Source of the DNA: an uncultured Nitrospiraceae bacterium
GTDB lineage: Bacteria > Nitrospirota > Nitrospiria > Nitrospirales > Nitrospiraceae
Direction: 5' to 3'
DNA length: 64,000 nt
NCBI GenBank assembly: GCA_963730935.1
Contig: CAVSTP010000003.1
Coordinates: 416,001-480,000 of the forward strand
Shown here one piece after another: positions 57,777 through 64,000 of this stretch; the first letter of the stretch is position 1, and every line of letters begins with the position of its first letter. Both the position numbers and the translations under genes were made by a program. The notes under the pieces were generated by a model. It ran no database searches, was not told the DNA's origin, and saw nothing but the letters and a program-made list of their open reading frames with translations.

Positions 57777-57861
57777 GGGCAGGTACCCAAGTGGCCAAAG
57801 GGGGCAGACTGTAAATCTGTTGCCATCGGCTTCCAAGGTTCGAATCCTTGCCTGCCCACCA
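57777..57861 (+). tRNA. tRNA-Tyr (GTA)
   Basis: Anticodon loop CTGTAAA, long variable arm, CCA end. Confidence 0.95.
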
Positions 57862-57952
57862 CAGCAGGCAATGCGGACGACAGTGGTGAGTGTCGAGCCC
57901 CGGTCATGACGGTTCTGTGGCTTCCACGCTCAACATCACGTTGGAGATCAAG

Positions 57953-58027
57953 GCGGGCGTAGCTCAGCGGTAGAGTCCCAGCCTTCCAAGCTGGCTGTCG
58001 TGGGTTCAACTCCCACCGCCCGCTCCA
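57953..58027 (+). tRNA. tRNA-Gly (TCC)
   Basis: GCGGGCGTAGCTCAG...CTTCCAA...CCCGCTCCA. Confidence 0.95.
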
Positions 58028-58140
58028 AGTGGCTACGACCTCAACGTTGTTCGTGACGCAGTTGGAGACATGAGTTGACGATTGGATTGAGACCGACGAC
58101 CTACGGAACCTTTTCACGGATGACGCAAGACAATTACATG

Positions 58141-58216
58141 GCCCACGTAGCTCAGTTGGTAGAGCACGTCCTTGGTAAGGACGAGGTCACGCGTTCGATC
58201 CGCGTCGTGGGCTCCA
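58141..58216 (+). tRNA. tRNA-Thr (GGT)
   Basis: GCCCACGTAGCTCAG...TTGGTAA...GTGGGCTCCA. Confidence 0.95.
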
Positions 58217-58299
58217 TACCACATTGTGCCGCAGGCGTGCGCCTCGGAGTGAGCCTGCGCTCGCGGGAATCATATTCGTTTTAGCAAAGGAGCTGAGGC

Positions 58300-59505
<1,206 letters not shown>

Positions 59506-59535
59506 TCCGGCTAGCGAAGGGGACAGGAGCAAGAG

Positions 59536-59685
59536 ATGCGAGAAATCATCGACCTGGCCTGTACGGCCTGCAAGCAGCGTAACTATTCGACAATGAAAAA
59601 TAAGAAAAACGATCCGGATCGGTTGGAACGAAACAAGTTTTGCAAGTTCTGCCGGAAGCACACGCCTCACAAGGAAGTGAAGTAA
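59536..59685 (+). CDS. rpmG: 50S ribosomal protein L33 (Zn-binding type)
   Basis: [49 protein letters not shown], below the ORF-track cutoff. Confidence 0.97.
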
Positions 59686-59716
59686 GGGTTCTGGGGAACT
59701 CAGAATCGCGATGTAG

Positions 59717-59791
59717 AGGGGCATGGTGTTAATGGCAGCACATCGGTCTCCAAAACCGAGAGTCTGGGTTCAAATCCTAGTGCCCCTGCCA
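59717..59791 (+). tRNA. tRNA-Trp (CCA)
   Basis: AGGGGCAT...CTCCAAA loop...TGCCCCTGCCA, in the usual position before secE. Confidence 0.95.
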
Positions 59792-59953
59792 AACAGAGCT
59801 TGCTCGACCCGGAGGGCTACTGGATTGAGCCCGACGGGATAAGCACCTTATGTGGGTTCTGTTTCCGTCTGAAGCTTGCTCGTGCCGGCTGCCATTGGAT
59901 GGTTCTTGGCAGACTGATAAAGGTTTGGCTTAGTTCAGAGGGAGTTGTCGTCA

Positions 59954-60148
59954 ATGATTACGAGGATGATCGAAAACATCAAAGAGTTTCTCGGCGATGT
60001 ACGCAATGAGCTTAAGAAGGTCTCGTTTCCAACGAAGGCGGAGACCATCGGATCTACAACGGTTGTGATCGTGTTCTGCGTGCTCATGTCGATCTATCTT
60101 TCAGTCATCGATTCGTTCTTATCTTGGCTGGTGGGGAAAATCATATGA
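59954..60148 (+). CDS. secE: Preprotein translocase subunit SecE
   Basis: ELKKVSFP motif, single TM and synteny. Confidence 0.95.
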   Translation: MITRMIENIKEFLGDVRNELKKVSFPTKAETIGSTTVVIVFCVLMSIYLSVIDSFLSWLVGKII

Positions 60149-60720
60149 GTGAGAGTCTATCAACCAAGGAACCGAAGACGGGCACGGGAAAAAACTGGTA
60201 CGTCATCCATACCTATGCCGGCTTCGAGGGACGCGTGAAAACCAGTTTGCTCGAACGGGCCAATCAGATGGCCCTCACGGAGAAGATGGGGCAGGTTCTG
60301 GTTCCAACGGAGGACGTCATCGAAATCAAGGACGGCAAACGGCGGACCTCACGGCGGAAATTTTTCCCCGGCTATGTCCTCGTCGAGTTGGAAACACCCG
60401 TGACCGATGAAACGCTTCAAATGATCAAGGAAACCCCCAAGGTCACCGGGTTTGTCGGGGGCGGGGCACAGCCGACTCCGTTAACGAATGAAGAAGTCGC
60501 TGAATTGTTGAAACAAGTCGATGCGGGCAGCGCGGGGCCCCGTGAGCAGGTCAAATTCATTAAAACCGACAATGTCCGCATCGTCGACGGACCATTCCTG
60601 GGCTTCAACGGCGTCGTCGATGAAGTCGATCAGGACCATAACCGCCTGAAGGTCATGGTCAGCATCTTCGGACGTTCAACGCCCGTCGAACTCGGATTCC
60701 TGCAGGTAGAACGCATATAG
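60145..60720 (+). CDS. nusG: Transcription termination/antitermination factor NusG
   Basis: WYVIHTYAGFE, FPGYVLV, KOW domain, VSIFGRSTPVEL. Confidence 0.98.
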   Translation: MSESLSTKEPKTGTGKNWYVIHTYAGFEGRVKTSLLERANQMALTEKMGQVLVPTEDVIEIKDGKRRTSRRKFFPGYVLVELETPVTDETLQMIKETPKVTGFVGGGAQPTPLTNEEVAELLKQVDAGSAGPREQVKFIKTDNVRIVDGPFLGFNGVVDEVDQDHNRLKVMVSIFGRSTPVELGFLQVERI

Positions 60721-60731
60721 AGGAGTAGCGC

Positions 60732-61157
60732 ATGGCGAAGGAAGTCTCGGCTCAGATCAAGTTACAGATTCCGGCAGGAAAGGCGAACCCGGCTCCTCCG
60801 GTCGGCCCTTCCTTGGGTCAGCACGGCGTGAACATCATGGAATTTTGCAAGCAGTTCAACGCCAAGACCCAAAAGGAAGGGGACAGCATCATCCCGGTCA
60901 TCATCACCGTCTATAAAGACCGGTCGTTCACCTTCATCATGAAAACGCCACCGGCCTCCGATCTGCTCAAGAAAGCGGCCGGTATCATCAAGGGATCCGG
61001 CGTGCCACAGAAGGACAAGGTCGGAAAGATCACGCGCAAGCAGTTGACGGAAATTGCACAAAAGAAGATGGCCGATTTGAACGCCGCCGATCTCGAGGGC
61101 GCCGTCAAGATCATCGAAGGGACCGCCCGCAGCATGGGAGTCGTGGTTCAGGGGTAA
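60732..61157 (+). CDS. rplK: 50S ribosomal protein L11
   Basis: [24 protein letters not shown]. Confidence 0.99.
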
Positions 61158-61180
61158 CGACAACGCAAGGAGTATTTGTA

Positions 61181-61873
61181 ATGGGCAAGAAAATGAAGGC
61201 CGCGCTGACGAAGATGGAACCGCGTCCGTACGCGCTCCGAGATGCCGTCGCGCTGGTCAAAACTTCAGCATACGCGAAATTCGATGAGTCCGTCGATCTG
61301 GCGATCCGACTGGGTGTGGATCCAAAGCGTTCGGATCAAATGGTGCGCGGGACGACGTCTCTTCCTCATGGCACCGGCAAGAAGGTACGGGTGATCGTCT
61401 TCGCGAAGGGGGAAAAGGAACAGGAAGCGCGCCAGGCCGGAGCGGATTTCGTCGGCGCCGATGATCTCATGGAGAAGATCAAGGGCGGCTGGATGGATTT
61501 CGATTATGCGATCGCTACGCCGGATTTGATGGCCTCGGTCGGCAAGCTCGGCAAGCAATTGGGTCCTCGCGGTCTCATGCCGAATCCGAAAACCGGGACT
61601 GTGACCTTTGAGGTCGGCAAAGCCGTCGCCGAGATCCGAAAAGGCCGGGTCGAGTACAAGGTGGAAAAGGCCGGCATTGTGCAAGTGCCGGTCGGCAAGG
61701 TGTCGTTCCAGCCGGATCAACTCTACGACAACGCGTCTGCGGTCTTAGAGGCTGTGGTGAAGGCCAAGCCCGCCTCGTGCAAGGGGCGTTATCTCAAGAG
61801 CGTCACCATTTCCAGCACGATGGGGCCAGGAGTGAAATTGGACGCGGTGGCCCTGGCGAAGCAGTGGAGCTAG
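61181..61873 (+). CDS. rplA: 50S ribosomal protein L1
   Basis: [36 protein letters not shown]. Confidence 0.99.
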
Positions 61874-61908
61874 GCGTCGAGCCCGCGGTCTAGACAAGAG
61901 GGGATGAG

Positions 61909-62844
61909 ATGAAGAAGGAAGAGAAAGCCACAGCGGTTGCGGAACTGACGGAAAAGTTCGGTCGTGCGCGATTGGCCATCGTCACCGAATGTGTGGGCCT
62001 CCCGGTCAACCACGTCACGGAACTGCGCAAGCAGCTACGAGGAGCCAAGGCCGAATACAAGGTCGTCAAGAATACACTGGCGATCCGAGCGGCCGAGGGC
62101 ACGACCGTGGCCGAGTTGAAGGCATATCTGAAAGGGCCCACGGGCGTCGTCATCGGGTACGACGATCCGGTGTTGCCGACCAAGATCCTCAAGGACTTCA
62201 TCGCCGCCGAAAAGCGCGAAGAAAAGATTCGGATCATGCTCGGGGTCCTCGAGGGCAAGGTCCTACAGCCGGCGGAATTGGCGGCCGTCGCCAAGCTTCC
62301 CAAGAAGGAAGTGTTGATCTCGATGCTGTTGTCGGCGATGCAGGGGCCGATTCGCGGCGTCGTCTATACCTTGAACGCGGTGTTGACAAAGTTTGTGAGA
62401 GTCATTGCAGCCATTCAGGATAAACGGAAAGGAGAAGGGGACATGTCAGCTACAGCTACGAAGTTGTCACAGGAGGAGTTAATCAAGGCCATTGAGAGCA
62501 TGAGCGTGCTGGATTTGGCCGAGTTGGTGAAGGGGTTGGAGAGCCGTTTCGGAGTTACGGCCGCCGCTCCCGTCGCCATGGCGGCGGCGCCTGCCGCCGG
62601 TGGAGCCGCTGCTGCTCCGGCCGAAGAGAAGACGGCATTCGACGTCATTCTCGCCTCTGCCCCGGCCGACAAGAAGATTCAGGTCATTAAGGTGGTTCGT
62701 GAACTCACGAGCCTCGGACTCAAGGAAGCCAAAGATCTGGTCGAGGGCGCTCCGAAGCCCGTCAAGACGGGCGCGACCAAGGAAGAGTCCGATGCCATGA
62801 AGAAGAAGCTCGAAGAGAGCGGCGCAAAGGTCGAGATTAAGTAA
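61909..62844 (+). CDS. rplJ: 50S ribosomal protein L10, fused in frame to L7/L12 (L10 part 61909-62442)
   Basis: L10 motifs (ELRKQLR, VVKNTLA, LKGPT, LPKKEVL) continue without a stop into L12. Confidence 0.93.
62443..62844 (+). CDS. rplL: 50S ribosomal protein L7/L12 (internal start)
   Basis: AAAGGAGAAGGGG precedes ATG 62443. [43 protein letters not shown]. Confidence 0.93.
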
Positions 62845-62867
62845 GCTCGGTCCCGTTCAGCATCTGC

Positions 62868-62892
62868 GGGCACCCGTGACGAACGGGTGCCC
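62868..62892 (+). other. GC-rich hairpin between rplL and rpoB (attenuator or processing site candidate)
   Basis: GGGCACCCGT-gacga-ACGGGTGCCC, a 10-bp stem with no U tract. Confidence 0.55.
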
Positions 62893-62924
62893 AAGCCCAA
62901 CCATATGTAGTGGAGGACTGCGGA

Positions 62925-64000
62925 ATGCCCGAAACGACTCTACAAGAGTTCGTCGAACGGAAGGATTTTTCCCGTATTCGGACCAGCATTGATATTCCGG
63001 ATCTCATCGAGATCCAGAAGCGTTCCTACGAGGAATTCCTCCAGTTCGAAGTCGAGCCGGAACGACGAAAAGATCACGGATTGCAGGCGGCCTTGGCCAG
63101 CGTGTTTCCGATTCCCGATTACAACAATACGGCGATTCTCGAATTCACGAGCTACACGCTTGGAACGCCCAAGTACGACGAGCGTGAATGCCTCGAGCAA
63201 GGTATGACCTTCGCCGTGCCGCTCAAGTTGCGCGTGCGGCTCGTGGTCTTCGACAAGGAAGACAAGGGCCCGAAGAAAAAGGTGCTCGACGTGCGCGAGC
63301 AGGAGGTCTATGTCGGCGAACTGCCCCTGATGACCGAACGCGGCACGTTCATCGTCAACGGAACCGAGCGCGTCGTGGTGAGTCAGTTGCACCGGTCGCC
63401 CGGCGCCTCCTTCACGCACGACAAAGGCCGCACCCATGCCAGCGGCAAGGTGCTGTACAGCGCCCGCATCATTCCGTACCGCGGGTCATGGCTGGATTTC
63501 GAGTTTGATGCGCGCGACATCCTGTACGTCCGCATCGACCGCCGGCGAAAGATGCCTGTGACTATTCTGCTCAAGGCCTTCGGATTTTCGAGCGACGACC
63601 TGCTGAAAATGTACTACCCAGTTGAGGAGATCCGGGTGGTCAAGGGCAAGCTGTTGCGCAAGCTGGATCCCGAGATCCATCAGGGGATGCGGGCTTCGAC
63701 GGAAGTTGTGGACAAGAGCGGCAAAGAACCGCTCGTGCGGGAAGGCGCCAAGCTGACGAAGGGCATTATCGCCAAACTCAAGGCGGCGGGGGTCAAAGAG
63801 ATTCCTGTGGCGCCCAGCGAGTTGGTCGGACGAGCGGTGTTGAGCGAAGTGGTCGATGCCAAGAAGAACAAGTTGGTGGAGAAAAATCAACGCCTGACCG
63901 CCGAGATGATCGAAAAGATCCTTGAAAGCGAAATCGAAGAATTCAAAGTCATCTTCTTTGACGGGGCAACTTCGACGCCTGTCATTCTCGACACGCTCGA
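62925..64000 (+). CDS. rpoB: RNA polymerase beta subunit (5' part)
   Basis: RBS GGAGG. PDLIEIQKRSY, GELPLMTERGTFIVNGTERVVVSQLHRSPG, IIPYRGSWL. Confidence 0.98.
   Translation, partial: MPETTLQEFVERKDFSRIRTSIDIPDLIEIQKRSYEEFLQFEVEPERRKDHGLQAALASVFPIPDYNNTAILEFTSYTLGTPKYDERECLEQGMTFAVPLKLRVRLVVFDKEDKGPKKKVLDVREQEVYVGELPLMTERGTFIVNGTERVVVSQLHRSPGASFTHDKGRTHASGKVLYSARIIPYRGSWLDFEFDARDILYVRIDRRRKMPVTILLKAFGFSSDDLLKMYYPVEEIRVVKGKLLRKLDPEIHQGMRASTEVVDKSGKEPLVREGAKLTKGIIAKLKAAGVKEIPVAPSELVGRAVLSEVVDAKKNKLVEKNQRLTAEMIEKILESEIEEFKVIFFDGATSTPVILDTL

Follow-up and report, generated by a model that had tools for sequence, protein, structure and literature searches.

An in-frame L10-L12 fusion with a conserved internal start codon in the ribosomal stalk operon of Nitrospirales

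Introduction

How can a ribosomal stalk that holds several copies of L12 on each L10 be made when both proteins share one reading frame? The canonical bacterial stalk, uL10(bL12)4-8, is assembled from the products of separate rplJ and rplL genes (PMC3299993, PMC4538822, PMC10931766). According to the available text of PMC3299993, L12 folds as a dimer, each dimer site takes up 10 residues of the L10 helix, and the stalk needs its dimers, E. coli with a single one growing poorly. The L10(L12 NTD)6 complex of T. maritima is known from crystal structures (PDB 1ZAV/1ZAW/1ZAX). In the 64,000-nucleotide window from an uncultured Nitrospiraceae bacterium that was analysed here (coordinates refer to it, and all features lie on the + strand), a sequence-only reading had proposed that the two genes form one frame with an internal ribosome-binding site, that the cell makes the fusion plus free L12, and that one L12 is thereby covalently tethered. 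We asked whether the missing stop is real, whether the internal start is conserved, and what stalk such a gene would build.

Results

L10 and L7/L12 are encoded by a single frame

The gene, rplJL (61909..62844), translates as a single 311-codon frame without a stop, and the profile searches agree with the proposal that a 178-codon L10 runs directly into L12. On the 311-aa chain, Pfam assigned residues 1-97 to L10, 188-234 to the dimerisation domain of L12 and 244-311 to its C-terminal domain, while NCBIfam placed L10 at 4-173 and L7/L12 at 184-311, each above its cut-off. The RNA-binding domain of L10 was recognised by PF00466 (96.5 bits against a cut-off of 22.8) and NF000955 (168 against 85), and the dimerisation domain, hinge and C-terminal domain of bL12 by PF16320, PF00542 and TIGR00855, which likewise exceeded their cut-offs. 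The L10 part (61909..62442, 178 codons) is full length by its NCBIfam match and by comparison with the L10 of unfused relatives (172-178 aa), and the L7/L12 part (62443..62844), 133 aa when counted from the internal ATG, comprises the dimerisation domain, an Ala-rich hinge and the C-terminal factor-binding domain. A whole-genome search returned no second L10 or L12 gene, leaving rplJL as the sole copy of either half.

The gene follows tuf, nusG, rplK and rplA and precedes rpoB (names assigned by reading the translations). The 35-nt rplA-rplJ spacer (61874..61908) gave no Rfam match to an L10 leader at E values up to 1; across the order the spacer ahead of rplJ is mostly shorter than 100 nt, and in family f2 it measures 21-38 nt. 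Between rplJL and rpoB, at 62868-62892, two GC-rich 10-bp arms form a perfect inverted repeat around a 5-nt loop; it lacks a T-run and is possibly a pause or processing site. Four tRNA genes surround tuf (57777-59788), which is a usual arrangement.

The junction is real and marks the order

The fusion was present in 105 of the 106 order loci read as DNA, representing four families with L10 identity down to 44%, and a canonical pair of two frames with a stop after L10 was found in none of the 105 intact loci, a count to be read with the kinship of these genomes in mind, since the loci are not independent. The 106th locus, L105 (G028:C3:367600-369300), has several indels in its L10 part and an intact junction, which looks like uncorrected long-read error. 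When 61 order genomes were searched, 56 had a match and 53 of these were full-length and stop-free; the other three were a match that reached a contig end after crossing the junction, a match split over two contigs that missed it, and G028 with its indels. A phylum-wide sample of 301 genomes contained 86 from the order, of which 85 had a match, all of them stop-free among the matches listed, and the 197 matched genomes outside the order yielded no stop-free full-length frame among the matches listed, which exclude 290 weaker ones. In a class-wide sample of 121 genomes, exactly one of the 68 matched genomes outside the order was fused (G680). That locus, L235 (G680:C122:783-1706), comes from a single genome of another order of the class and has a stop-free L10-L12 frame with its own Shine-Dalgarno (SD) sequence and ATG; because its L10 groups with unfused relatives, the fusion there looks like a separate event. 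Of four RNA libraries, three, from three studies, gave contigs that span the junction without an indel there, although contigs do not prove transcription. The fusion is real and not an error, and within the phylum it cleanly sets the order Nitrospirales apart.

These data also bear on the notion that L10 truly ends at the TAA at 62421..62423, with the frame joined by a programmed frameshift or by a sequencing error. A stop in the -1 frame does precede the internal ATG in 69 of 105 loci; it is missing in the other 36, a TAA in any frame within 30 nt upstream of that ATG occurs in only 61, and a slippery heptamer is found in only 6. We therefore rejected a programmed -1 frameshift, neither of its signals being conserved. 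The error version is refuted, as the same frame recurs in many independent assemblies and in the RNA-library contigs, and the notion as a whole retains next to no probability. The sequence-only reading had itself worried that an indel might hide a true stop near 62421 or that close relatives might keep separate genes. Neither worry was borne out, as the TAA lies in the -1 frame, is not the L10 stop and is unconserved, and the relatives, which that reading had wished to see checked for the missing stop, are fused as well.

A putative internal start precedes the L12 part

Codons 174-178 (62428-62442) read K-G-E-G-D and stand directly before ATG 62443. They overlap a putative Shine-Dalgarno sequence, GAAAGGAG (62427..62434), which doubles as codons K174-G175-E176, lies 8 nt ahead of the ATG and can base-pair with the 3' end of the genome's own 16S gene, from which the anti-SD was read (the end of the mature 16S may differ). 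The suggestion that the last L10 codons double as an SD was thus upheld. Its pairing energy, -11.5 kcal/mol, compares with -8.5 kcal/mol for the SD-like site of the rplJ start (61897..61903) and with -7.8 to -9.7 kcal/mol for tuf, rplK, rplA and rpoB. Among 4000 ATGs sampled from the 14,652 internal ATGs in long ORFs of this genome, only two matched 62443 in both SD strength and openness of the local fold, so the signal exceeds what chance would give.

The same signal recurs across the order. An ATG stands at codon 178-181 in all 105 intact loci (predicted L12 of 130-135 residues), the SD before it is the strongest of all in-frame ATG, GTG and TTG sites in 93 of 105, and it exceeds the rplJ SD in every one of the 105. 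Constraint was visible at the level of codons: Gly175 is encoded exclusively by GGA or GGG (95/95 loci) and Lys174 by AAA in 96 of 105, whereas AAG predominates elsewhere. When 17 conserved Gly columns were ranked for purine-ending codons, position 175 came first (1.00) and 177 second (0.91), and when 28 Lys columns were ranked for AAA, position 172 came first (0.98) and 174 second (0.91). In one family the SD is shifted by one codon and P-K-E-E is encoded instead, which indicates that an RNA signal rather than a peptide has been kept. Around the internal ATG, GC3 falls to 0.43-0.45 against about 0.7 across most of the ORF, and local folding weakens to -2.8 kcal/mol against -7 to -12 kcal/mol in most of the ORF, a double dip that resembles the one at the gene's 5' end. 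The locus thus combines a conserved internal start codon, an SD and an open structure, as internal starts of the infB type do. When the codons were redrawn synonymously, roughly one draw in five yielded an SD of the same strength (median P 0.19-0.27 in three families and 0.04 in the fourth), a weak result because K-G-E-G is purine-rich anyway. A search for long-range pairing that would mask the internal SD found no partner position shared among loci (best bin, 14/105). Judged by this conservation, the internal start appears to be under selection.

An internal promoter was considered and rejected, since the TTGACA at 62383-62388 has no -10 partner and the codons beneath it vary among relatives; a promoter scan of 59400-63100 returned 0 promoter-like sites. 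Two RNA-library contigs start at 62385 and 62392, positions to which we gave no weight because contig ends cannot reveal an RNA start.

Had the SD arisen merely as a by-product of the linker's amino acids, the fusion would be the sole product and ribosomes would run with one L12 head. The K-G-E-G codons are indeed inherently SD-like, and the roughly twofold protein abundance described below is compatible with one copy; against this stand the codon-level constraint, the GC3 dip, the open fold and the invariant Met, as well as the retention of a three-site helix and the folding of L12 as a dimer, and we regard a fusion-only cell as highly improbable. Of the earlier proposal that the fusion is accompanied by free L12 from internal initiation, the fusion and the retained start hold, the latter through its conservation, the constraint on the SD codons and an SD stronger than that of rplJ, while free L12 is still a predicted product.

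Predicted architecture of the stalk

The L10 part aligns to 1ZAV, the T. maritima L10 with three dimers, through residue 173, and to the L10 of E. coli and B. subtilis only through residue 158. AlphaFold2 predicted a helix at residues 133-175 (62305..62433), a disordered and exposed linker at 176-187 (62434..62469) and then two L12 helices, with a mean pLDDT of 63.7 and a pTM of 0.43 (confidence fair for L10 and low beyond, the model showing no docking of L12). By comparison with relatives, the linker would derive from the former spacer 5' of rplL together with L12's N-terminal extension. With 10-residue dimer sites, the predicted helix and the 1ZAV match are consistent with three sites as in T. 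maritima, and the distance from Pro147 of the helix to the internal Met is held at 31-34 residues in 105/105 loci. Given 10 residues per site and a 12-residue linker, the outermost site should be within reach of the tethered L12, hence a stalk of composition [L10-L12](L12)5.

The proposed mechanism runs as follows. One mRNA would carry two starts in one frame; initiation at 61909 followed by read-through would yield the 311-aa L10-L12 chain, and initiation at 62443, behind the stronger SD, would yield free 133-aa L12. The chain would bind 23S rRNA through its L10 part, its tethered L12 would dimerise with one free copy, most likely on the outermost of the three dimer sites, and four further free L12 would occupy the remaining two sites, giving six factor-binding heads of which one is covalent. 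We consider it likely that the gene makes the L10-L12 chain plus free L12 and so gives [L10-L12](L12)5; use of ATG 62443 in vivo, survival of the bond in the mature ribosome, the position of the tether and the 1:5 ratio are parts of this scheme that we infer. Three dimer sites still fit on the L10 helix, so helix length probably continues to determine how many L12 a ribosome carries. The idea that the fusion offers a different way to set stoichiometry therefore survives in part, applying to how a 1:5 ratio of chains is produced and not to copy number, for which the three-site helix is kept. Similarly, covalent tethering of one L12 is backed by an in-frame fusion conserved order-wide, and persistence of the bond in the mature ribosome is presumed.

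That bond would be lost if a cut within the linker split the fusion into a normal L10 and an unattached L12, with the other copies coming from the internal start. Precedents exist for ribosomal proteins released from a precursor by cleavage, the ubiquitin-S31 fusion being an example (PMC5027506), and residues 176-187 are predicted by AlphaFold2 to be disordered and exposed. The linker peptide, by contrast, differs by family (KGEGDM, PKEESM, KGMGEM) while the SD stays constant, the independent fusions described below share no motif except the SD-coded Gly/Glu, no conserved cleavage motif was found in the linker across the order families or those fusions, and the gene cluster as read contains no dedicated protease gene. 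We hold cleavage to be unlikely.

Both products might also be made with six free L12 filling the three sites, so that the tethered copy became a seventh head or was clipped. In the model the tethered domain makes no confident contact with the helix, which leaves some room for such an arrangement. It sits poorly with the identity of the tethered copy to free L12 and its very high local concentration, and with the fixed distance from Pro147 to the Met; moreover, an unpaired L12 N-terminal domain would leave its dimer face exposed, to judge from the available text of PMC3299993. A seventh head thus seems quite improbable, and a tethered L12 seated in one of three dimers remains the preferred reading.

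Abundance in published proteomes

The proteome supplement for N. moscoviensis contains rplJL as a single entry of 312 aa (PMC9381531) and that for N. marina a single 311-aa entry named 'L7/L12' (PMC8115632), both tables giving per-protein and not per-peptide values. In two of the six N. moscoviensis samples, those computed, rplJL ranked 3rd and 7th of 47 ribosomal proteins, at 2.2 and 1.7 times the median of the 46 others. The expected ratio is 1.0 if only the fusion is made and 3.0 with five free L12; the values are below 3.0 and within the scatter of one-copy proteins, so that the abundance in these tables is compatible with fusion alone and with fusion plus free L12 alike.

Origin of the fusion and its recurrence in other phyla

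In nine loci of unfused relatives within the phylum, L10 has 172-178 residues and ends in a stop, with a 30-100 nt spacer behind it, and in family f11 of the class the GAAAGGAG signal occurs together with a similar N-terminal extension of L12. In the simplest history, which we infer from this unfused sister family, a short deletion in an ancestor of Nitrospirales would have taken out the rplJ stop together with the greater part of the rplJ-rplL spacer, so that the native SD and ATG of rplL came to follow L10 in the same frame and the former ribosome-binding site became linker codons. Codons such as CAG170 and AAA172 are one base away from a stop, yet no reversal was seen among the 105 loci, an observation that points to maintenance of the fusion by selection but does not prove it.

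From the best 150 matches in a search against 1.84 billion representatives, 21 full-length fusions with 32-47% identity were chosen by eye, and four read-through artefacts were dropped; 17 of the 21 have a Met within a Gly/Glu-rich linker. Twenty of the fusion clusters were looked up, of which eight have more than one member and four are named by taxon, as Armatimonadota, Chloroflexota, Bipolaricaulia and Fervidibacterota. In 301 genomes from the phylum of a Dehalococcoidia record, seven stop-free junction crossings occurred among the matches listed, and all five of the Chloroflexota-sample fusions that were read (L207, L212, L216, L217 and L231) retain an SD with ATG or GTG, the GTG being found in one. 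Among 79 complete loci from metagenomes, an unrelated set in which in-frame pairs were enriched, one was fused, and a DNA scan aimed at the P0159 lineage found three loci, all with separate genes. On a metagenome contig, L167:1501-2418 encodes a fused L10-L12 with a long charged N-terminal L12 extension and groups with P0155. Two further proteins, P0156 and P0169, consist of six or seven L12 C-terminal-like domains in tandem, with a repeat region following in one of the two, and are unrelated to the fusion.

A tree built on L10 from 74 rows, 37 of them fused and with P0161 and P0173 excluded, required 12 changes of state, and a single origin of all fusions was rejected by the AU test (p 0.0013), both analyses using LG+G4 and L10 alone with long branches present. 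On this phylogeny, similar fusions arose independently in other phyla.

Discussion

With the canonical stalk, rplJL shares its domains, the operon position rplK-rplA-rplJ-rplL-rpoB and a three-site helix (PMC3299993, PMC10931766, in their available text). It differs in that rplJ and rplL form one frame, free L10 is impossible, one L12 would be covalent and no L10 leader was found in the 35-nt spacer. In-frame internal starts are described for infB, clpB and mrcB of E. coli (bioRxiv 10.1101/520783, available text), and in the infB type, as proposed for rplJL, a single frame yields a long and a short product, the latter identical to the C-terminal part and able to enter the same complex. Unlike that type, rplJL stems from a gene fusion, encodes a core ribosomal protein, and is predicted to make the short product as the major one (about 5:1). 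In archaea and eukaryotes, P0/uL10 carries a P1-like acidic C-terminal tail. The stalk base there bears its own factor-binding end as it would here, but only by analogy, for P0 has a tail and not a whole dimerising protein, no free partner comes from the same frame, and P1/P2 are structurally unlike bacterial L12 (PMC4379515, available text). Both parts of rplJL and internal starts are textbook, and rplJL is not a new system.

The same gene is in databases for Nitrospira as rplJL, 'Fused 50S ribosomal proteins L10 and L7/L12' or 'Multifunctional fusion protein', P0031 being one so labelled (91% identity); the labels seen are silent on the internal start. Close relatives that carry names put the organism within Nitrospira. 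In other records either the 133-aa L12 alone is called or the 311-aa chain goes under the name L10 or L7/L12, and the fusion accounts for the failure of gene callers to find one half, L10 or L12, in Nitrospirales genomes. A full-text literature search, with most subscription papers outside its reach, found no paper on an L10-L12 fusion, and by term search the available text of a ribosomal-protein phylogenomics study (PMC3353972) and of a Nitrospirales genome comparison (PMC12342949) does not mention it, so that the fusion, already labelled in databases, seems unstudied.

A covalently tethered [L10-L12](L12)5 may be a recurring bacterial design, kept by selection after several independent origins (Nitrospirales, Chloroflexota lineages, Armatimonadota, Fervidibacterota, Bipolaricaulia and others), which we put forward tentatively, as a serious possibility though not the likelier outcome. 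If true, the tether would guarantee each ribosome a factor-recruiting head and would steady the outermost dimer, which is the easiest to lose. Among ribosomal proteins only L12 is multi-copy and loosely held, and the need for several exchangeable copies is debated. A stalk in which nature has fixed one copy, in Nitrospira that can be cultured, would offer a test of whether L12 needs to exchange and of how a multi-copy ratio is set.
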